Shown here in pieces: positions 7,296 to 48,035 of a DNA stretch of 64,000 nucleotides. Position 1 is the stretch's first letter. Every line of letters begins with the position of its first letter. The translations under genes were made by a program, and so were the position numbers. Location of the stretch: the NCBI GenBank assembly GCA_964647995.1, contig CAZYNP010000004.1, forward strand, positions 124,422 through 188,421, in the 5' to 3' direction. Under the pieces are notes generated by a model. The model was not told the DNA's origin and ran no database searches. It saw nothing but the letters and a program-made list of their open reading frames with translations. The stretch comes from an uncultured Cytophagia bacterium. GTDB lineage: Bacteria > Zhuqueibacterota > Zhuqueibacteria > Thermofontimicrobiales > Thermofontimicrobiaceae.

Positions 7296-8501
7296 TCATT
7301 TAAGTTCTTCTAACTGCAATGGTATGTTCAGGTATTTGCCTTTGCGTATAATCTTTAGTGCCAGCACATCCCCACCCTTGGCATCCGTATCTTCGATGAC
7401 CCGCCAGATGTCACGAGTATTCTGAATTACATGATCGTCGATGCCAATGATGACGTCGCCCACCTGCAAATGCGCTCGTGCAGCCGGACTGCGCGATTCG
7501 ATATTCGAAATAATCACACCTTTAGTACTATTCAATCCCAGGTATCGGGCCAGCGAGTAATTCAGGTTCTCCACTTCCAGGCCGGTCCAAAAACGCCGAT
7601 TGACTCCACCGTATTGCCGCAATTCGCTGACTATTTTTTTGGCGCGATTGATGGGGATCGCAAACCCCAGGCCGATATTGGTGGCATTGCTTTCGCTGCC
7701 CGAATAGATAAACGCATTAATGCCAATAACCTCTCCCAGGCTATTTACCAGCGGCCCGCCGCTGTTGCCGGCATTAATTGCCGCGTCGGTTTGGATCATA
7801 TCTTTGTACACGCGGCTGTCGTCCTGTCGCCCAAAATCCCGGTCGGTGGCGCTAATTATGCCTTGCGATACCGAAGGTTGCCCCATGTCAAACAGGCCGA
7901 AAGGATTGCCGATCGCAATCGCCCATTCGCCAATGATCAAATCATCGGAATCCCCCAGCATGGCATACGGCAGTGATTCTTTGGGATTGATCTTCAACAG
8001 TGCAATATCCGAAATATAATCGCTGGCGACCAATTGAGCATTATACTTTTGTCCATTCGGAAGCGTAACCACGATTTCGGTGGCGCGATTGACTACGTGC
8101 TCATTGGTGACAATATATCCATCCGGCGAAATGATGAAACCCGAGCCCAAACCTTTCACCTGTTGCCGTTGTTCCGGAAAGAAAAACCGGAAAAAGTCGT
8201 CATCATAAACCCATTCCGGTGAGCGCGATTCTCTGATCTGCAGCACATTGATTCCCACCACCGCCGGGCTAACTGCTTTGACCGCTTCCGTAATCACCGT
8301 TTGGCGGGAATTGGCTAATTGCTGACTATTCACCTGGCGCATGGCGACAGATCTGGTGGCAGCTTTACCGCTATTGACTTGCGGTGCGCTGCTCCAATAA
8401 AAAACCGGTTCGCGCATCCGATCCAGCCAGTACGACCAGATCAATATGCCCACCGAGGTGCCAACCACAAAAACCAGGAGATATGATAGGAATTTTTTCA
8501 T
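7296..8501 (-). CDS. HtrA/DegP-family serine protease with PDZ domain (catalytically intact)
   Basis: 401 aa with an N-terminal TM/signal, trypsin-like triad motifs TNEHVV (His), DIALLKI (Asp) and GNSGGPLVN (Ser), and a C-terminal PDZ domain. Confidence 0.9.
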   Translation of the reverse strand: MKKFLSYLLVFVVGTSVGILIWSYWLDRMREPVFYWSSAPQVNSGKAATRSVAMRQVNSQQLANSRQTVITEAVKAVSPAVVGINVLQIRESRSPEWVYDDDFFRFFFPEQRQQVKGLGSGFIISPDGYIVTNEHVVNRATEIVVTLPNGQKYNAQLVASDYISDIALLKINPKESLPYAMLGDSDDLIIGEWAIAIGNPFGLFDMGQPSVSQGIISATDRDFGRQDDSRVYKDMIQTDAAINAGNSGGPLVNSLGEVIGINAFIYSGSESNATNIGLGFAIPINRAKKIVSELRQYGGVNRRFWTGLEVENLNYSLARYLGLNSTKGVIISNIESRSPAARAHLQVGDVIIGIDDHVIQNTRDIWRVIEDTDAKGGDVLALKIIRKGKYLNIPLQLEELK

Positions 8502-8595
8502 GGATCACGGTCCTTATCCAACATTTCGTCCATTGATTGCCGCTGAAGAATGGCGGCATCGGCGGCTTCAATTTGACGCATGCCAGCACGCAACG

Positions 8596-9243
8596 TTAGC
8601 GACTCTTGACCTTTTCCCAGTCCTTCAAAAAATTCTGGATGCCAATATCGGTGAGCGGGTGCTTCACCAACTGCTCGATGACTTTGAACGGAATGGTAGC
8701 AATATGCGCGCCAGCCAGCGCCGCTTCGACCACATGCAATGGATTTCGAACACTGGCCACAATAATTTCGGTCTTGAAATCATAGTTCTTGAAAATCGTC
8801 GCAATGTCTCGCACCAAATCCATTCCCCAATCGCTGATATCATCGATTCGGCCCACGAAGGGGCTGACGAAACTGGCGCCGGCTTTAGCCGCCAACAGCG
8901 CCTGCGATGGGCTAAAAATCAGTGTGACATTCACCCGGATCCCTTCCGTTTCCAATTGCTTGATGGCCTTCAAGCCCTCTCGGGTGATGGGGATTTTGAT
9001 TACAATATTCGGATGAATTTTGGCCAATTCGCGACCTTCGCGAATCATTCCTGGCGCATCCAGGCTAACTACTTCTGCGCTAACCGGGCCCTGAACCACG
9101 TCACAAATCGAGCGCAAAATATCCTCGAATTTTCCGGGCACTTTTGAAATCAACGATGGATTGGTAGTAACGCCATCCAAAACACCCAACTCCGCGGCCT
9201 GCTTTATTTCTTGAATATCCGCTGTGTCAATAAAAAACTTCAT
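8596..9243 (-). CDS. fructose-6-phosphate aldolase / transaldolase (TalC/Fsa type)
   Basis: The track ORF 8596..9390 starts inside truA. The internal Met at 9243 ([14 protein letters not shown]...GVTTNPSLI) gives a ~216-aa product of typical Fsa/TalC length. Confidence 0.85.
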
Positions 9244-9268: not shown

Positions 9269-9997
9269 TCAGTAATAGATTCTTTCCAGACACAATCCTT
9301 TCGCCGGAACGGTGGGGCCGGCATTATTTCGATCGCGTGACTCCAGAATACTGGGTATATCGTCGACGGCAGTAAATCCCCGTCCGACATTGATCATCGT
9401 TCCCACAATAATCCGCACCATGTGATGCAAAAAACGATTGGAGACGATATTTAAAATTAATGTAGTTGCCATTTGTTCCCAATCGATCCTTTCAATACAG
9501 CACCGCTGCCCTTCTTGCGGATCATCCACCCGACAAAAAGCCCGAAAATCATGTTCCCCCAATAGATAGTTCGAAGCTTCCTGCATCCGGCCGACATCCA
9601 GCGGCGAACGGTACGTCCAGCAATAAAACCGATTGATCGCTCGTTCCTGCCGGGTAATGGTATAGCTATAATGCCGTCTGATGGCATCAAAGCGCGCATG
9701 AAACGCAAGCGGCATCTCCGCAGCCGATAGGATTCTAATGTCGCGCGGCAGATTGCCATTCAGCGCGGCCATGATTTTTTCGGGCGGCATGGGGTGGTCG
9801 AGCCTGAAATTAGCCACCTGCCCCCGGGCGTGAACACCGGTATCGGTTCGGCCTGCGCCAATGACGGCAATATCGCTGCGGAAGATCTTTTTTAGAACAT
9901 CCTGCAAATCGCCCTGAATTGTGCGCAATCCCGGTTGGTATTGCCAGCCGTGGAAATTAGTACCATCGTATTCGAGCAGCAGTTTGATATTTCGCAT
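9269..9997 (-). CDS. truA: tRNA pseudouridine(38-40) synthase
   Basis: 242 aa, [23 protein letters not shown]...[18 protein letters not shown], with the catalytic-Asp region typical of TruA. Confidence 0.9.
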
Positions 9998-41650: not shown

Positions 41651-44600
41651 TCAGAATAATTGCAATTGTGCATCATCGACTGGCGTTTCTTTGTCTCGGG
41701 GTCGGTCCTTGAGCTGTGCCTGACGTTGTTGCTTTAGCGCTTCTTCGATGTCGGCTAAAAATCGCGAGGGTCGATTATTTTTTCTCTCACCAAATAGGAA
41801 GCGGCTTTTGGTATACAATAGAATCAATCGTTGTTTGGCGCGGGTCATTCCCACGTAGAATAGCCGCCGCTCTTCTTCGATGTCGCCAGTAGTAGCCTGC
41901 GGGTGCCGATAAGGAATCAGCCCTTCCTCACAGCCGGCAATAAAAACAACCGGGAACTCTAAGCCTTTGGCGGCATGCAAGGTTAACAACGCCACTTTTT
42001 CCGCTTGCGGATTGTAGACATCCGTCTCTCTCTGAAGCGCGATCTGCTCCAGGAAATCACTCAAATTCACGGCTGCCGCATCGGCATATTCCCGCAACAA
42101 TTGCCAATAATATTGTCGCCGTCGGTCTTTTTTATAATACGATAGCAATCCGAATTGCGTCATTATGCGGGAGAGAATTTCGCCAACCGGGGCATCAGGA
42201 ACGAAAGCCATTATGTCCTTCATTCGACCGACCCAGCGCTCGATCGGCTGCTTCTGGGCTGCACTCAGCGGCGCAATCTGGCGACAGCGCTGCATGGCTT
42301 CCCAGAGCGACAGCGCATTGGTACGTTGGTAGCTCACCAATGATCGCAAAGTCGACTCGCCAATGCCGGTTGGCGCAATCTGGAGTATCCGCTGCAAATC
42401 CAGATCCGCCTGGGGCTGCTGCAGCACCTTCAAAAACGAAACCATTTCTTTCACTTCGGGAATTTCATAAAACGGCTGTTCGCCAACCGTCTGGTAGGGA
42501 ATCCCGGAACGAAGAAATGCCTCTTCCAGCGCAGCGACCTGGGCCCCCAATCGATAGAGTACCGCAATCTCGGAAAAACCAGTACAGGTTTGGGATTCCT
42601 CGTCGCCAGCACGACCAGAATCTACCGAAAAGAAGCTGGTGGCCCCCATCATCTTCTCGATCTGATGCACGATAGTCTCGGCTTCGGATTTCTCAGTTGG
42701 CGTCTGAAAAATGTCAATTTGAGTCCGGGAGATCAGGGGTGACCAGAGATGGTAATTCTGATGGTCTGGATTTTTGGAAATCACCTGCGTCGATGCCTTG
42801 AGAATCGTTGCCACCGACCGATAGTTCTTTTCCAGCCGAATGACCCGGCAGGCCGGAAAGTCCTGTTCAAATTGCAGGAAGAAACGACGGTCCGAGCCGC
42901 GAAAACCATAGATCGCCTGATCGGGATCGCCAATGGCACAGATGTGGGTCTCCGGAGTCGTCAGCGAGCGTAACAATTCATATTGCGGCCGATTGATATC
43001 CTGATATTCATCGATAAACAACCATCGATACCGCTGTTGATATTTCTTGAGCACGGCAGGCTGCGCTTGAAATAGGCGGATGGGCATTAAAATCAAATCA
43101 TCATAATCAAACGCCTGTTGCGCGTGGAGCGCTTGCTGATATTGATCGCACCAGGAACTCAACCGCGCATCAGTTGACGCAGGTGCTTCCGGGTCAGAAT
43201 GGGCAGGAGACAGGCTGTTTTTGAACCGGGAAATTTGATCGGCCAGCTCTCGTATCTCTTTGTTGGATAATGTCGGTGCGATTGTTTTTAGCAAATTTAT
43301 CACGTCGCTCTCGCCGTAGATCAAAAAGCTCGCCGGATAATTTATCGTTCGCGCCTCCTGCCTCAAAATGGAAGCTCCCAGAGCATGGAATGTTTTAATG
43401 GTTATGGCGCTGGTGGTGCTCTCACCCAACACCGCCAGCAGTCGCGACCGCATCTCCTGAGCGGCACGATTGGTAAAAGTAATTGCCAATATCTGATCCG
43501 GCGGGACACCCTTGTTTTGAATCCAAAACGCGATGCGCTGCGTGAGGGTATGAGTTTTGCCGGTGCCGGGCCCGGCAACTATCAATAACGAAGAACCGTC
43601 ATATTCTACTGCCTCCTGCTGGCGGCGATTGAGGCCGGTCGCGCCTTCTTCATCAGATTCGTGCGGCGCCGCAATTGCGGCCTCTGGAGTAACCTCCGGC
43701 GGGGGTTGTTGCTGACCGTAGGCCAACTCCTGATCTTTTATCCCCGACGGCGCGGGTTGATCGCCTGCGGTTGGCAACACCGAGGCATCATCGCCAAAAA
43801 AGAAGGATTGCGATAAAAACCGCTGTCGCTCGTCATCCGAGAAGAGTTTGATGGTGCCAAACTCGCCATCATAGCCGGCAGCAATCTGGACCTCTTTCTG
43901 GCGCATACGTCGAATTCCCTCGGCCAACAAGCTCCCGCCGGCTCGCTGGAGTTCACTGAGCGGAATCTCCGTCAGGATCGTTATTTCGGAACCGAATTGG
44001 CGCAGTAGCTTTTCCAGCTTTGCCGCGACCGCCTTGGTGCCCGCACCGACCGCTAAGATCTCCGCCAAAACTTCCGGCAACGGTATCAGGCTATGGAAAG
44101 GCCTGGCAGCAGACGGTTGTGAGCCGAACGGACGGTCGGCCAATGCTTCCACGCGATTGAGGACGCCAACGGTCACGCGCTTGCCGCAAACCGGACAGTG
44201 GCCCTGATGCGCGGCAGTCTCAGCCGGAGTGAGCCGCACCTGGCAGCTCCGATGACCATCCAGATGATACTTGCCCTCCTCCGGGAAAAATTCAATCGTA
44301 CCTAAGAAGTGTCCCGAACTGCCGTTTTTTAACGCTGTTAGCATCGCAGGATAGGAAAACTCACCATCGAATATATTTGCCTCGCGTCCCAGCTTTGCCG
44401 GTGAATGGGCATCCGAATTCGAGACCAGGGTGAATCGATCCAGTTGGGAAAGCATCCAATTCATCGGCGGATCTGACGAGAGACCGGTTTCCAGGGCGAA
44501 AATTTGCGGCGTGAGGTCCTCGAAGCAATCACCAATGGAATCGAAGCCGGATTTTGAGCCCAGCACGGAAAACCAGGGCGTCCAGATATGCGCGGGAATT

Positions 44601-45079
44601 AAAAACGACCATTCGTGCGATTGGAGCACCATTTCCAGCAGATCCCGAGCATCGAGCCCCAGGATGGGCCGGCCGTCAGATCGGATATTGCCGATTTTTT
44701 CCAATGCCACTTGAAATTTTTGGGCAACATCAAGGGAGGGAAAAAAGACGATGTTATGAATTTTGCGGACGTGATCGCCTTTTTTATAAATATTGCTAAT
44801 CTCGCCCGACAGCACAAAACGGACCTCGCGGTGACATGCTGCTGGGACGGTGGCATCGATGGCGCGGGCATAATCAGATTTCAGGCGAAAGAAACCCGGC
44901 TCGGCCGGTTCCAATTTGGTTTTGATCTCATCCAACCAGCCCGGATGCGTGATATCGCCGCTGGCAACCACCTGAATCCCCTTTAGCTGTGCCCAGCGGT
45001 GCAACTGTTCGAATGTCAGATCCTTGCTGGTAGCTCGGGAAAAGTGAGAATGAATATGCAAATCAGCGATGAATTTCAT
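41651..45079 (-). CDS. fusion protein: N-terminal EndoQ-like PHP-domain endonuclease + Zn ribbon (~aa 1-430), Pro/Gln-rich linker, C-terminal UvrD/PcrA-like SF1 helicase (~aa 500-1142)
   Basis: N-terminus: MKFIADLHIHSHFSRA, GDITHPGW, IPAHIWTPWFS, SNSDAHSPAKLGREANIF, GKYHLDGHRSC...CPVCGKR, RPFHSLIPLPEVLA and FGSEITIL match EndoQ/TIGR00375 as I remember it. C-terminus: Q-motif LNRRQQEAV, Walker A AGPGTGKTHTL, FTNRAAQEM, Walker B DEYQDI, GDPDQAIYGFRG, NYRS, TLHAAKGLEFPVVFIAG and YVGMTRAKQRL, i.e. SF1 motifs Q through VI. Confidence 0.85.
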   Translation of the reverse strand: MKFIADLHIHSHFSRATSKDLTFEQLHRWAQLKGIQVVASGDITHPGWLDEIKTKLEPAEPGFFRLKSDYARAIDATVPAACHREVRFVLSGEISNIYKKGDHVRKIHNIVFFPSLDVAQKFQVALEKIGNIRSDGRPILGLDARDLLEMVLQSHEWSFLIPAHIWTPWFSVLGSKSGFDSIGDCFEDLTPQIFALETGLSSDPPMNWMLSQLDRFTLVSNSDAHSPAKLGREANIFDGEFSYPAMLTALKNGSSGHFLGTIEFFPEEGKYHLDGHRSCQVRLTPAETAAHQGHCPVCGKRVTVGVLNRVEALADRPFGSQPSAARPFHSLIPLPEVLAEILAVGAGTKAVAAKLEKLLRQFGSEITILTEIPLSELQRAGGSLLAEGIRRMRQKEVQIAAGYDGEFGTIKLFSDDERQRFLSQSFFFGDDASVLPTAGDQPAPSGIKDQELAYGQQQPPPEVTPEAAIAAPHESDEEGATGLNRRQQEAVEYDGSSLLIVAGPGTGKTHTLTQRIAFWIQNKGVPPDQILAITFTNRAAQEMRSRLLAVLGESTTSAITIKTFHALGASILRQEARTINYPASFLIYGESDVINLLKTIAPTLSNKEIRELADQISRFKNSLSPAHSDPEAPASTDARLSSWCDQYQQALHAQQAFDYDDLILMPIRLFQAQPAVLKKYQQRYRWLFIDEYQDINRPQYELLRSLTTPETHICAIGDPDQAIYGFRGSDRRFFLQFEQDFPACRVIRLEKNYRSVATILKASTQVISKNPDHQNYHLWSPLISRTQIDIFQTPTEKSEAETIVHQIEKMMGATSFFSVDSGRAGDEESQTCTGFSEIAVLYRLGAQVAALEEAFLRSGIPYQTVGEQPFYEIPEVKEMVSFLKVLQQPQADLDLQRILQIAPTGIGESTLRSLVSYQRTNALSLWEAMQRCRQIAPLSAAQKQPIERWVGRMKDIMAFVPDAPVGEILSRIMTQFGLLSYYKKDRRRQYYWQLLREYADAAAVNLSDFLEQIALQRETDVYNPQAEKVALLTLHAAKGLEFPVVFIAGCEEGLIPYRHPQATTGDIEEERRLFYVGMTRAKQRLILLYTKSRFLFGERKNNRPSRFLADIEEALKQQRQAQLKDRPRDKETPVDDAQLQLF

Positions 45080-45587
45080 TTTCAGATTGATACGTTCGTT
45101 GTTAACTTTTGGCTAATCAATGTCTACAGATAATCGATTTTTGACCTGGAACTGGCAGAGAGACGATGGTGACAGTTGACAGTTGTCAACCGAATCAGAA
45201 TGATCCAATGACCGCCACGCCACCACGACGATCAGGCGGCGTCTGCCATTGCGTGTTGAAAACGCCGCCAAAAATCTGGCAATCGCATCCAGATGCTTCG
45301 GGTTTTGTTCGCTCAGCGGCCTGTTGTCCTGGAAGTTAGAATGCCGGTTGACTCCGAGATAGCCATTCATCACCTCCCCATTCAGGCTTACGAGCACTAA
45401 TACTATAATTAAATAAAAGGAGAAAGTCAAGAAGATTGTGGGAAAAGGTTGGTGATATTTTGTCATTTCTGGCAGGAGGAAAAAAACTATCTCCGCTTGT
45501 CGAAAAAGCGATTTCGACAAAAAATGTTCTGACCCATGGCAAATGTGACTGGCAGCGTTGGTCAGCAATGTCCTGGTCGCGGTGCAG

Positions 45588-45875
45588 TTATTTTTTCGAA
45601 GATGACCGGGATGATTGTTTCCATAAAATATATCCAGTGACCAGAATGGCTATCACCAGATTGGTGATAAAGATGGCGTTCCAGAATGTGACATTGTAAA
45701 AAAATCTGCCCAGTCGCATCCGAAAAATCAGGATGAGAACTCCCAAAAGAGCGTAGATAAATGCATAGATGTAGTACAGGAAGATGTTGCCATGATTGTA
45801 GTCCTCGAACAGCGCTCTGAGGATGAAGAACAAAAGTGCGCTGCATAGTATGCCGAAAAAGACTGGAAGTAGCAT
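45588..45875 (-). CDS. small 3-TM membrane protein (hypothetical)
   Basis: 95 aa, strongly hydrophobic, with AAGGAG RBS 8 nt upstream. This is the only ORF in the 45.1-47.2 kb stretch with reasonable signals. Confidence 0.4.
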   Translation of the reverse strand: MLLPVFFGILCSALLFFILRALFEDYNHGNIFLYYIYAFIYALLGVLILIFRMRLGRFFYNVTFWNAIFITNLVIAILVTGYILWKQSSRSSSKK

Positions 45876-46686
45876 GACTTTTGCTCCTTATTTTTGTACT
45901 GGATTGCAGTGGCACATCCACCATTTTCAAAAAATGAATTGGCAAATTGAAATTCATTGACAGCTTAAATGGCAGAAATTCGTTCCAAAGTGGGTAGTGG
46001 CTGGAGAGCAATGCAGCACGAAATGCGATTCTGTTTCTTGGGCAGCGGTGAATATTTTCGGTTATTTGGTATAACGATCCAATCGATGCTCAGCCTCCGA
46101 GGTAGAAGAGCAGGCAGCCCCGAAAGGCCGGGCGCTTGCCAGCAGAGAGAGGGCATTGACGATTTTACAGCCAATGTCTGACTTCGGATTGAATTAAAAT
46201 ATAGCTATCACCTCCTGAATATTTATTTGACGGCATAAATTTCGACAACATGTTACACCAATAATATAACCAGATTTTCTTGAAAGTCAAGTAGATTTTA
46301 TACTCAAAAAAAATAACCAAACAGAACAATGCCCAATGGAGGGCTAACTCGACTATGAGCTGACAATTGGCAATTCTTGACGGCCATCGGCTATTTTTCG
46401 CCGGCAGGGTCACACGCACCAAGTGCGGCAAAGAAATCCCTCGTCGAGGGAAAACTGCAAGGCATTTTGCGTTCGTTGACGGCTGAAGCGTAGGCTGATC
46501 CATAGGGTTCTAATAAGCAGAGCAAACAATTGTCCTTATGCAAATACGGCCCAGGGATCGATGGCAGCATCTAATCTGAGTTTTCTAAACTAAATTATAA
46601 TCTGTCGGAAAAAATCCAAACGCCTTCCGGCCGCTGGTGTTGACCAGATCAATAAGTCACAAAAATCTCATCAATACCAAATTGGC

Positions 46687-46870
46687 GAGCGACCGGTCAG
46701 TAACTTGGTCCACTCATACGTGAGGTTTTTCAGCTCATTGAAAAAAATCAGTTATAGGTGGACTGACCAGTCGCTTAAAAATGGAATGCTTCCAAAATCT
46801 CAAAAAGTTGAGCGACCGGTCAGTAACTTGGTCCACTCATACGTGAGGTTTTTCAGATCATTGAAAAAAA
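46687..46870. repeat. two 61-bp direct repeats (1 mismatch) flanking a partial inverted copy
   Basis: gagcgaccggtcagtaacttggtccactcatacgtgaggtttttcagMtcattgaaaaaaa occurs at 46687-46748 and 46810-46870. Between them lies ggtggactgaccagtcgc (46757-46774), an inverted partial copy of the repeat's 5' end. The track ORF 46705-46935 is an artefact of this repetition. Confidence 0.7.
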
Positions 46871-46873
46871 GTC

Positions 46874-46902
46874 TTGACATCGAAAAAATTTATTTCTATA
46901 TT
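46874..46902 (+). promoter_or_regulatory. sigma70-like promoter TTGACA-17nt-TATATT immediately after the second direct repeat
   Basis: Hexamers and spacing read directly. It points toward the lytic transglycosylase gene about 310 nt downstream. Confidence 0.4.
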
Positions 46903-47215
46903 CGGCGCTTTATTTTTAAAAACGAAATTCGATAAAATTAGCTTTTAGGCATATTCATTGAAACTTGACCTAAATCACAGCTATATTTTCGAAAAAAAGT
47001 TACATTTGACCAACAAAAAAGGATATTGACTATCGTCAACGAATAGTTGGGCAGTCCATCTCCTCATTCCCAAAAACGGTCAACGATGAAACCTAAACTG
47101 AGATGGATCGTTTAAAGCAGAGTTTTTAACGGCGCCATTAGAGCCTAACGAGAATTCAATTTCAATGCTATACGGGACCATAATTAGTTATTCAATTACA
47201 TAAGGAGAAATCAGG

Positions 47216-47920
47216 ATGAAGAAAGAGAACCTACTGTACAAGCACATCCGATTGCCATTGAAAATTTTGTTAATCGTTTTCATGTCGATTACCGTCATAG
47301 GGTTCACCTATAAGTATTTCGACACGACCGATGAAACAAAAAAGAAAATGAGCGATCTGGAGCGTTCTCTGCAAGACCTGAGAGCCGCGATGAGTGTGGA
47401 TAGCGTGCGACAATATAACATCCAGAAGATCATGGCGATTATTGACAAATACAACAAAACGATGTCGTCAGTTGAGAAATACGAGATTGCGAATGAGATT
47501 TATAACATGAGTCTGAAGTATACCAATCTGGATGTCGATTTGATTTGCGCCACGATCACACACGAGTCGGCCAAGACCTGGGATCCAAAGGTCATCTCGC
47601 AAGCGGGTGCTATTGGGTTGATGCAGATTATGCCGGCAACTGGCATGTATCTGGCTGAATACGAAGACATCACCTGGACCAGCCCCGAAGAAGTGCTGAT
47701 GAATCCCATCTACAATATCCGCATGGGCACTCGCTATCTGTCGACGCTGGTCTCTTATTACGGCGTGGACGGCGGGTTGGCCGCTTATAATGGCGGTGAG
47801 AAACAGGCTGCCCTCTGGCTAAAGAAAAACAAGCAAAAAGGCATCCTGTGGGCGGAAACTGAAAACTACATCCCGGCAATCATTAAATTATGGGATCAAT
47901 ATCGCGAAAAAGCTCTGTAA
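47216..47920 (+). CDS. lytic transglycosylase domain (SLT) protein, membrane-anchored
   Basis: 234 aa with an N-terminal TM and an SLT catalytic region ITHESAKTWDPKVISQAGAIGLMQIMPATG (catalytic Glu in HES). RBS AAGGAGA. Confidence 0.8.
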   Translation: MKKENLLYKHIRLPLKILLIVFMSITVIGFTYKYFDTTDETKKKMSDLERSLQDLRAAMSVDSVRQYNIQKIMAIIDKYNKTMSSVEKYEIANEIYNMSLKYTNLDVDLICATITHESAKTWDPKVISQAGAIGLMQIMPATGMYLAEYEDITWTSPEEVLMNPIYNIRMGTRYLSTLVSYYGVDGGLAAYNGGEKQAALWLKKNKQKGILWAETENYIPAIIKLWDQYREKAL

Positions 47921-47942
47921 CGACAACAGGGTTTGACATCGA

Positions 47943-47971
47943 AAAGGCTGCTCACCAGAGCAGCCTTTTTT
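47943..47971. terminator. bidirectional intrinsic terminator between convergent genes
   Basis: aaaaggctgctc-acca-gagcagcctttttt, with a T-run on the plus side and A/T-run flanks on the minus side. Confidence 0.65.
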
Positions 47972-48035
47972 ATTTTCTCCCCCAAAATTATTCCTGCACT
48001 TACCGATCGCTGGTGAGCGAGCGGTCCATTGAGCA

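Follow-up and report, generated by a model that had tools for sequence, protein, structure and literature searches.

Probable tandem insertions of an undescribed MITE in fixed register to sigma-70-type promoters of KSB1 bacteria

The repeat cluster upstream of the SLT gene, in the 64,000-nt stretch of DNA analysed here (the window), is with good confidence identified as two tandem insertions of a previously undescribed 114–115-bp MITE of KSB1 bacteria, which stands in fixed register to sigma-70-type promoters. MITEs as such are known, but we are aware of no earlier description of one from the uncultured phylum KSB1/Zhuqueibacterota. The cluster lies within a 2.1-kb region (45080–47215) for which a preliminary description had offered three explanations, and the first of these, a decayed mobile element or MITE-like insertion, was right for 46673–46862, where terminal inverted repeats, 8-bp duplications, an empty site in a close strain, and eight further copies are found. 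Outside the MITEs, the 2.1 kb is an ordinary fast-evolving divergent intergenic region comprising one small membrane-protein gene, the conserved sigma-70-type promoters of three neighbouring genes, and lineage-specific filler.

Structure of the repeat cluster

Two 61-nt direct repeats, as previously described, are located at 46687–46747 and 46810–46870 and are identical at 60 of 61 positions; when extended, they reach 75 nt at 91 % identity, and a repeat match was obtained in 0 of 100 shuffled sequences. Their start-to-start distance is 123 nt and not 124 bp. The partial inverted copy noted between them is also present (AGCGACTGGTCAG, minus strand, 46763–46775), with one mismatch relative to the repeat arm. 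Tandem Repeats Finder returned nothing relevant. The true repeated unit, however, is the spacer together with the second repeat and not the 61-bp repeat itself, which is composed of the right arm and tail of R1 or E2, the duplicated 8-mer, and the 8 nt (GAAAAAAA) past the 8-mer.

E2 is a complete 115-bp MITE copy on the plus strand (46740–46854), to which a profile of the other copies aligns with E=4e-41. Its left arm, GGTGGACTGACCAGTCGCT (46757–46775), corresponds to the inverted fragment of the preliminary description and is separated from the right arm, AGCGACCGGTCAGTaacttgGTCCAC (46811–46836), by a 35-nt loop containing a GGAATGCTTCC mini-hairpin; the right arm is followed by a tail ending in GTGAGGTTTTTC. 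The copies of the 8-bp target-site duplication on the left (AGCTCATT, 46732–46739) and on the right (AGATCATT, 46855–46862) match at 7 of 8 positions. R1, or E1, at 46673–46731 on the plus strand, is the solitary right half of an older MITE copy, which contains part of the loop, the right arm, and the tail, and ends 8 nt before E2. The profile match that reveals it covers 46673–46747 (model positions 55–129, E=9.5e-18), R1 being the portion up to 46731. The left half of this older copy was sought upstream, where the alignment score of 20 did not differ significantly from the shuffle mean of 19.5.

The probable order of events is seen from L003, a strain of ~93–96 % identity, which contains R1 and lacks exactly 123 bp, i.e., the 115 bp of E2 and the 8 bp of one duplication copy. 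A single AGATAATT occupies the position of the duplication in L003, and the empty site is thus precise and the element is present or absent depending on the strain. E2 is a recent, strain-polymorphic insertion, and R1 is the remnant of an earlier insertion at this site; another possible order of events is that L003 lost the 123 bp through recombination between the repeats. A derived AACTTG occurs in both R1 and E2, as do identical 8 nt past the duplicated 8-mer, from which we infer gene conversion between them after the insertion, an extra step that is needed to explain AACTTG.

The MITE family

The MITE is one long, imperfect, non-coding palindrome with the termini GTAAAAG...CTTTTAC and the end sequences GTAAAAGATCAG and GTAATACYTGAG, in which GTAAAAGATCAGTTATAGGTGGACTGACCGGTCGCT at one end is matched by an imperfect reverse complement of itself at the other. 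The sampled DNA yielded nine full copies and at least three remnants. The eight full copies other than E2 reside on other contigs in unrelated gene contexts and are flanked by 8-bp duplications, so the repeat is not unique to this locus. A 25-mer of the right arm, used as a DNA pattern that required the exact arm, matched three metagenome contigs, which align to 46742–46852 (the spacer and the second repeat) at 76–88 % identity. Copies L036–L041 were recovered by peptide searches with translations of the element. Two of these, L036 and L039, share their sample of origin with L002, and their tetranucleotide correlation with the window (0.96–0.97) equals that of one half of the window versus the other; three loci from sample 3300045276 carry the tetranucleotide signature of the window.

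All nine full copies are 114–115 bp in length, with only short spurious frames crossing the element, and their alignment has a mean column identity of 87 %. The termini define subfamilies, one with GTAAAAG/CTTTTAC and another, L038 and L041, with GTAATAC paired with GTATTAC. The left end is GTAA in seven of the nine copies, GAAA in the window, and GCAA in L039; the right end is TTAC in five of the nine and TTTC/TTGC in the window, L036, and L037, and the aligned row of L040 is one base short. The duplicated 8-mers all differ from one another in sequence but have a constant length of 8 bp. Their two copies agree at all eight positions in L035, L036, and L038, and at seven in the window, L039, and L041; the duplications of L033 and L040 (6/8) and L037 (5/8) are the three imperfect ones. 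Older right-end remnants are located on the promoter-distal side of the full copy in the window, L036, and L040.

Position of the copies relative to promoters

The promoters considered here are consensus matches that are kept between relatives and are known from sequence alone. The one adjoining the second repeat, TTGACA-17-TATATT, is present as previously described and agrees with the consensus at 11 of 12 positions; its -35 hexamer occupies 46874–46879 and, after a 17-nt spacer, its -10 hexamer 46897–46902. This promoter of the SLT gene is preceded by an 11-nt A-tract (GAAAAAAAGTC), the two together covering 46863–46902 on the plus strand. It is conserved in L001 and L003, both of which lack E2, and its intact state there without the repeats leaves the second of the earlier explanations, a regulatory repeat array for the downstream gene, unsupported as such. 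Of the two sites reported for the motif TTGACATCGAAAA, that at 46874 stands, and the other starts at 47933 rather than 47930; shuffled sequences contain a mean of 0.15 matches to it, and none contains two.

The order of duplicated 8-mer, 11 nt (A-rich with a final C), and -35 hexamer recurs at the insertion sites, the -35 hexamer lying exactly 11 nt past the duplication in seven of the nine copies. A perfect TTGACA-17-TAnnnT is found at this offset in five of the nine (the window, L035, L037, L038, and L039), TTGACT in L040, and TTGATT in L033. In L041, TTGCTA-17-TATATT is displaced to offset 12, and L036 has no promoter beside the copy. The promoter can be on either side of the MITE and is outside the duplicated target. 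With a background of 3.3e-4 promoter-like sites per position, five of nine copies at the exact offset correspond to P ~1e-14. Some copies came from searches that may favour gene-proximal copies; such a bias, however, cannot create an exact 11-nt spacing. Since promoters at the exact offset exceed chance, insertion in register with promoters is the likely mechanism by which the MITE copies were placed, and the constant distance that separates almost every recovered copy from a strong promoter downstream of it suggests that the transposon targets promoters.

A more specific model, for which the chances appear evenly balanced, is that the MITE and its transposase integrate upstream of sigma-70-type promoters at one set distance, with the target at ~-54 to -47 and exactly 11 nt from the -35 hexamer, in either orientation, which would make the MITE a bacterial promoter-targeting transposon. 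Each new copy would then be situated between the promoter and any older copy and may serve as a hairpin insulator. The target at about -54 to -47 would be selected by a DDE transposase acting in trans, perhaps one of the IS66 family, and the cue could be either the A-tract/CTTGAC sequence or a DNA bend at the upstream edge of the promoter-bound RNA polymerase. Repeated insertion at one site would push older copies upstream, where these displaced palindromes would decay by asymmetric deletion. The hairpin, with its A- and T-run flanks, is a putative bidirectional terminator or insulator before the promoter.

We know of no bacterial transposable element that inserts at a constant nucleotide distance from resident promoters. 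A review of prokaryotic MITEs (PMC10969869) gives no such element, and its insertion preferences do not include a constant spacing of 11 nt to a resident -35 hexamer. If the register reflects target choice, the family would be a natural system for studying a transposase that reads a promoter or promoter-bound RNA polymerase, would deliver hairpin, terminator, or operator modules before many genes at once, and would allow true promoters of an uncultured lineage to be marked computationally at no cost. Insertion of the MITE also accounts for swollen intergenic regions, differences between close strains, and assembly breaks at these places.

Alternative explanations

Selection rather than targeting could have fixed the promoter distance if the unit were a portable operator or enhancer module, in which a transcription factor bound to the GACCGGTC arm palindromes controls the promoters and copies are kept as a regulon. 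Such a module is compatible with the identity of the element as a MITE and disputes only the cause of the copy positions; we judge it unlikely, though the least so of the alternatives. It would be in keeping with the promoter distance, which is fixed in seven to eight of the nine copies, with the solitary right halves kept by the promoter in the window and L003, and with a minimal arms-only palindrome in L001. The right arm AGCGACCGGTCAGTA is almost invariant and the left arm has several changes, but the conservation of the former derives partly from the search method, as the DNA pattern needed an exact right arm. Moreover, the element can face the promoter either way, and in L033 and L038 it is the other arm that lies nearer to it; L001 has a conserved, intact promoter in spite of having no arms there; and L036 has no adjoining promoter. 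Selection alone would have to purge every insertion that is at least 1 nt out of register.

The fold of the element raises the question of whether the unit encodes a small RNA or is a dedicated intrinsic terminator, i.e., a long hairpin with a U-run; the repeats would then be duplicated RNA genes. E2 folds with -38.5 kcal/mol (z=-4.8), a value that none of 200 shuffles equalled, with a T4-5 run 3' of the hairpin and an A-run 5' of it, and several copies lie directly after stop codons (L033 and L036). However, the opposite strand folds equally well, covariation is lacking (a term of +0.3) and numerous broken pairs are tolerated, and there is no conserved promoter 5' of the unit, where conservation begins exactly at the GTAA terminus. 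The 8-bp duplications and the empty site are foreign to RNA genes and terminators, and this explanation is accordingly held to be very improbable; terminator activity is possible as a side effect of the MITE. Rfam 15, applied to the whole window at gathering thresholds and to 44900–47400 at E<=5, returned only a tRNA-Pro (35203) and, by chance, a snoRNA match of 17.9 bits, with no family matching the element, and returned nothing for L033–L035. The third of the earlier explanations, unannotated small RNA genes, has no support, given the lack of an Rfam match, of covariation in the hairpin, and of a conserved promoter inside the element. An RNA-gene or riboswitch reading of the element was dropped on account of the absent covariation and the equal fold of both strands. 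Interpretations of the arm as CtsR-like, ECF-promoter, or attC-like were assessed by eye and dropped because their spacing or motif varies between copies.

Two further alternatives have scarcely any probability. A purely local rearrangement of unique sequence with no mobile element involved, be it through template switching during replication or through duplication in tandem or with tandem inversion, would produce the direct-inverted-direct layout, near-identical direct copies (60/61) that both carry the derived AACTTG, and a 123-bp unit that is polymorphic between strains. It is already contradicted by the dispersed copies, as the spacer and second repeat occur at a minimum of eight other loci at 76–88 % identity, with unrelated neighbours and their own 8-bp duplications; in addition, L003 has neither the left arm nor the loop, which thus cannot be copies of local sequence. 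Just as implausible is a REP/REPIN-type palindromic repeat moved by a RAYT (Y1) transposase instead of a DDE enzyme, despite the palindromic doublet architecture of about 115 nt, the solitary 'singlet' arms (R1 and L003), the short hairpin of L001 that consists of the arms alone and follows a stop codon, and the intergenic position of copies at gene ends. Insertions of REP/REPIN elements are not, to our knowledge, known to make target-site duplications, which are clear at the copies described here. The arm palindrome GACCGGTC is loopless, so a single arm cannot form its own REP hairpin, and the few copies in the sampled DNA are unlike typical REP families.

Relationship to known elements

The KSB1 MITE resembles Correia/NEMIS of Neisseria and ERIC/IRU of enterobacteria, which are 100–150-bp non-coding imperfect palindromes with terminal inverted repeats that form long hairpin folds, are intergenic and often abut gene ends or promoters, show insertion polymorphism between strains, and occur in clustered or nested copies (PMC10969869). 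It has no sequence similarity to any of them, and while Correia duplicates TA and has internal promoters, the KSB1 MITE duplicates 8 bp and the promoter is outside both element and duplication. REP, BIME, and REPIN elements have in common with it solitary arms, palindromic arms whose orientation alternates, and sites just after stop codons, but the KSB1 MITE differs from them in its 8-bp duplications and conserved ~35-nt loop, in its low copy number, and in that no RAYT gene was seen.

IS30 and IS911 insert next to IR-like sequences, and the eukaryotic Ty3 targets Pol III start sites. As in these systems, insertion of the MITE occurs at a defined distance from a DNA or protein landmark, with repeated hits at one site. 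Similar to the IR-like targets of IS30 and IS911, the flank of the MITE duplication (GAAAAAAAGTC and similar sequences) resembles the element terminus GTAAAAGATC; the landmark of the KSB1 MITE, however, is apparently a bacterial sigma-70-type promoter (A-tract, C, TTGACA).

The GTAA ends and the 8-bp duplication indicate the IS66 family, which is possibly that of the parent transposase. Duplications of 8 bp are also made by other IS families, and we are not aware of site-specific targeting by the IS66 family. In the IS66 family, the inverted repeats begin with GTAAGCG and insertion generates direct repeats of 8 bp (PMC11946415); inverted repeats of GTAAGCG... and GTAACCG... are also given (PMC12888890). 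Both features are found in the MITE, with GTAA at seven of nine left ends, yet only the first 4 nt agree (GTAAAAG in the MITE versus GTAAGCG in IS66). No tnpA/tnpB/tnpC genes were seen, and a search of ~1 Mb of fetched DNA for a full-length parent or a second pair of matching ends found neither, nor a transposase with matching ends. A scan of viral contigs and a BLAST search of plasmids with the element gave no matches.

The remaining intergenic region

A degenerate short palindrome, CTTACCGATCGCTggtgAGCGAGCGGTCCAT, consisting of the MITE inner arms only, is located at 47999–48029, just 3' of the radical-SAM stop codon, and a perfect ACTGACCGGTCGCTggcAGCGACCGGTCAGT is found at the orthologous place in L001, L004, L005, and L009.

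The description of the 2.1 kb as poorly coding holds insofar as no other ORF is conserved in L001 or L003, but the 95-aa ORF, for which a good RBS had correctly been reported (AAGGAG 8 nt 5' of the ATG), is a conserved gene. It is encoded at 45588–45875 on the minus strand, is retained at its length of 95 codons in both L001 and L003, and specifies a protein with three hydrophobic segments; a Pfam search of the six ORFs of the region gave no family. The differences between the window and L001 are biased toward the third codon position (16/6/32), and a tblastn match in L013 covers residues 1–94 at 46 % aa identity. The promoter of this gene, TTGACT-16-TATATT (46263–46290, minus strand), is among the most conserved blocks relative to L001 and L004, and the ~390-nt non-coding leader (45876–46262) that follows it has a few conserved blocks and no conserved ORF.

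The promoter of the EndoQ/PHP-UvrD helicase gene, TTGACT-17-TATAGT (45402–45430, minus strand), is near-invariant in L001, L003, and L004 and 82 % identical in the distant relative L013. Between this promoter and the helicase ATG is a lineage-specific insert of ~270 nt (45128–45397) without TIR, which is absent from L004 and L005. Its identity to L003 is 89 %, so that it diverges at least as fast as neutral sites, and in L001 this point is occupied by an unrelated insert of ~180 nt. The filler between the divergent promoters (46315–46672) is likewise lineage-specific and fast-evolving, with no conserved ORF; it is largely absent from L001, L004, L005, and L008 and is 83 % identical to L003 with indels, compared with 3–9 % divergence at 4-fold sites. 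No other copies of 45080–45400, 46300–46610, or the L001 insert were found.

Conserved RNA structure was sought in the SLT leader of about 310 nt (46903–47215, plus strand) and none was detected, the consensus energy being only -3.7 kcal/mol. The leader is 77 % identical to that of L001, as against 33–49 % divergence at 4-fold sites, and contains conserved blocks at 46961–47024 and about 47086–47120, the former of which also precedes SLT in L011 and L013, two distant relatives.

The Intergenic Region and Its Relatives

The 2136-bp stretch at 45080-47215 is the gap between two diverging genes, which encode a PHP/EndoQ-like-UvrD helicase (1142 aa; 41651-45079, minus strand) and an SLT-domain lytic transglycosylase, SLT (234 aa; 47216-47920, plus strand). 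The window belongs to candidate division KSB1, as indicated by contigs with an identical SLT protein and by a genome scan using that protein. Contig L002 (99.9% identity) is the same strain as the window, L003 is a close strain (92.6-96% intergenic identity, 3-9% divergence at 4-fold sites), and L001, L004, L005, and L009 ("candidate division KSB1 bacterium JZ4_201803_bins_154") form a sister lineage at 33-49% 4-fold-site divergence from the window; the gene order is retained in the distant relative L013.

The Repeat Unit as a MITE

The 61-nt direct repeats of the preliminary description lie at 46687-46747 and 46810-46870 (60/61 identical, 123 nt apart), and the inverted partial copy between them is also present (arm copy at 46763-46775). 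L003 has a single repeat and lacks exactly 123 bp relative to the window. When a 25-mer of the repeat was used to scan metagenomes, three contigs came up (L033/L034 and L035), whose neighbouring genes are not those of the window. Since they match window 46742-46852, i.e., the spacer with the inverted arm and the second repeat, at 76-88% identity, the true unit runs from the left arm through the loop and right arm to the tail, and the first repeat is just a solitary right half. The complete copy (E2) occupies 46740-46854, flanked by duplications at 46732-46739 and 46855-46862, and the solitary half (R1) occupies 46673-46731. Two short-read Logan contigs of the same strain, L006 and L007, begin inside the second repeat (window 46827 and 46841); the repeat cluster thus fragments assemblies at this locus.

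Further copies (contigs L036, L037, L038, L039, L040, and L041) were obtained by translating the element in its open frames and running chimeric peptide queries against spurious ORFs called over copies. Over 114-115 nt, the nine full copies can be aligned with a mean column identity of 87%; they fall into two subfamilies, one with GTAAAAG termini (contigs of 45-51% GC) and one with GTAATAC termini (contigs of 32-43% GC). L036 and L039 stem from the same sample as L002, and their tetranucleotide correlation with the window (0.96-0.97) equals that between the window's halves; therefore, the family is multi-copy in this organism.

All nine copies have GTAA...TTAC-type inverted termini and a flanking 8-bp direct repeat, the 8-mer differing per copy. 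This duplication is perfect (8/8) in L035 (AAAATAGT / AAAATAGT), L036 (AATAGAAT / AATAGAAT), and L038 (TTTCATTG / TTTCATTG), matches at 7/8 positions in the window (AGCTCATT / AGATCATT), L039 (TTGCAATC / ATGCAATC), and L041 (AAAAAAAT / AAAAAAAA), at 6/8 in L033 (GATTACTC / GGTTGCTC) and L040 (CGCCTGAA / CTCTTGAA), and at 5/8 in L037 (ATTGGGAA / GTTGGGGG). The empty site in L003 reads ...TTTTTC AGATAATT GAAAAAAGTC TTGACA. The unit is a MITE, and its family, found in an uncultured phylum, is new. On either strand it folds into a very stable hairpin, without covariation and with broken pairs tolerated, which is the pattern expected of DNA-level inverted repeats and not of selected RNA; an Rfam search found nothing in the region. 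The "MITE-like insertion" offered as one explanation of the stretch holds for ~190 bp, the remainder consisting of promoters, one small gene, and neutral filler.

Published descriptions of the IS66 family give GTAA termini and 8-bp duplications as its hallmarks (PMC11946415, PMC12888890), and the MITE resembles it in both respects, although just 4 nt match; no parent element was found in the fetched DNA, viral contigs, or plasmids. Membership of the REP/REPIN class is ruled out by the 8-bp duplications. The closest functional relatives are Correia-like and ERIC-like MITEs, which, unlike the present element, carry their own promoters or duplicate TA.

The nine aligned copies are nearly uniform in the right arm AGCGACCGGTCAGTA, with a single change in L037, and 5/9 are changed in the left arm; this contrast is partly a product of the copy-finding method, but the right arm could have its own function. 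At L033 3306-3309 and L036 ~9970-9983, the element terminus (..GGTTTTAC / ..GGTTTTTCA) forms or adjoins the stop codon (TAA or TGA, read on the opposite strand) of the incoming gene, a putative TRAP-type solute-binding protein as read from L033 and a PorP/OmpA-domain gene in L036.

Promoter Register and Order of Events

In seven copies, one side past the duplication carries 11 nt (A-rich, C last) followed by a -35 hexamer and, 17 nt on, a -10 hexamer. This arrangement lies to the right in the window (gaaaaaaagtc, TTGACA-17-TATATT), L039 (aaaaaaaggtc, TTGACA-17-TAATAT), L035 (tggaaaaattc, TTGACA-17-TAATAT), L037 (caaaattgtgc, TTGACA-17-TATATT), and L040 (aaaattaacac, TTGACT-17-TACTTT), and to the left in L038 (caaaaaaatac, TTGACA-17-TATTTT) and L033 (ctaaaatatgc, TTGATT-17-TAAATA). 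L041 has TTGCTA-17-TATATT at offset 12, and L036 abuts a stop codon with no adjoining promoter. Over ~1 Mb of these loci, the background frequency of promoter-like sites whose spacer is 17 nt is 3.3e-4 per position and strand, so the probability of 5/9 copies at the exact offset is near 1e-14.

The promoter itself is not part of the element, because a variable duplication stands between them, because it can flank either end of the internally asymmetric element, and because the SLT promoter is kept in L003 and L001 without E2. Other strong window promoters also have C before TTGAC, but their upstream flank is T-rich, not A-rich, and none has a MITE; the A-tract, which is similar to the GTAAAAG end of the element itself, may thus contribute to target recognition. 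Targeted insertion at promoters is the most economical reading, the alternative being that selection maintains the exact register. Promoter-register targeting is absent from the list in a recent review of prokaryotic MITEs (PMC10969869), and this apparent aim at promoters is the reason the family merits follow-up.

Three loci (the window, L036, and L040) preserve the right end of an older copy just past the promoter-distal duplication, which fits a history of repeated hits on one target in which the earlier palindrome then decayed. The 61-nt identity extends 8 nt beyond the duplication on both sides, the E2 terminus is GAAAAAAA, not GTAAAAGA, and matches the promoter A-tract, and AACTTG is common to R1 and E2, in place of the A[GA]C[TA]C[TG] of the remaining copies; these features suggest gene conversion between the tandem copies. 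The reverse order is possible, in which both copies were ancestral and L003 lost 123 bp via recombination between the repeats.

The Remaining Intergenic Sequence

A four-way alignment was used to derive the anatomy of the 2.1 kb. Three conserved sigma-70-type promoters are present, i.e., the helicase promoter TTGACT-17-TATAGT (45430 to 45402, minus; 82% conserved in L013), TTGACT-16-TATATT (46290 to 46263, minus; separated by ~390 nt from the 95-aa ORF downstream of it), and the consensus-like SLT promoter TTGACA-17-TATATT (46874-46902, plus), which had been recognised previously. The 95-aa ORF (45588-45875, minus) is a real gene: its 95-codon length is kept in L001 and L003, tblastn gives a match in L013 (46% amino-acid identity), and its substitutions (16/6/32 by codon position) show third-position bias; a Pfam search returned no family. 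Its ~390-nt non-coding leader (45876-46262, minus), running from the conserved promoter to the gene, contains short strongly conserved blocks, e.g., TGAGCATCGATTGGAT and CTGCTGGCAAG..CCC..CGGGGCTGCC, and a AGGAGGTG without a start codon behind it; it has no Rfam match and may act as a cis-regulatory RNA.

Segments 45128-45397 and 46315-46672 are confined to the window/L003 lineage, with 89% and 83% identity to L003, respectively, and divergence at or above the neutral rate; neither a conserved ORF nor a second copy was found. Directly downstream of the helicase-promoter -10, three lineages have three different sequences. In L001, a ~180-nt insert at ~8478-8656 has inverted ends of its own (..TTCTAAGTCAGATT.. 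/ ..AATCTGACTCAGTAGAA..), is missing from L004 and L005, and looks like a second MITE unrelated to the first; the 270-nt insert at window 45128-45397 is unrelated to it.

The SLT Gene, Leader, and Terminator

The SLT leader (46903-47215) is constrained, with 77% identity to L001, and its block 46961-47024 is conserved as far as L011 and L013; no conserved RNA structure was found in it. The apparently unstructured blocks at 46961-47024 and ~47086-47120 (AAAyTTGAC..TCACA..AAAAAAAgTTACATTTG..CAACAAAA and ATGAAACC..CGTTTAAAGCAGA) accompany SLT in the distant L011 and L013 despite a different gene neighbourhood, and could be an alternative promoter or protein-binding site. The window and the L001 lineage encode exactly the same protein (100% identity; window 47216-47920; 10001-10705 in L001, L003), all 50 nucleotide differences being silent (1/0/49 by codon position), whereas neighbouring proteins are only 82-91% identical; this small lytic transglycosylase is under unusually strong purifying selection.

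In L001, L004, L005, and L009, the radical-SAM stop codon is immediately followed by ACTGACCGGTCGCTggcAGCGACCGGTCAGT (L001 10782-10812), a perfect 14-bp-arm hairpin built solely of MITE inner arms; in the window (47999-48029) and L003, the hairpin at the orthologous place is degenerate. It may be a deletion derivative of the full MITE or the source from which its arms arose. The motif TTGACATCGAAAA, the start of the SLT promoter, does recur, at 47933, just before the SLT terminator hairpin (both within 47933-47970), and this 13-mer is kept in L001 and L003. The stem of the terminator differs between lineages by compensatory changes (GCTGCTCACCAGAGCAGC vs GCTACTCAGATGAGTAGC).
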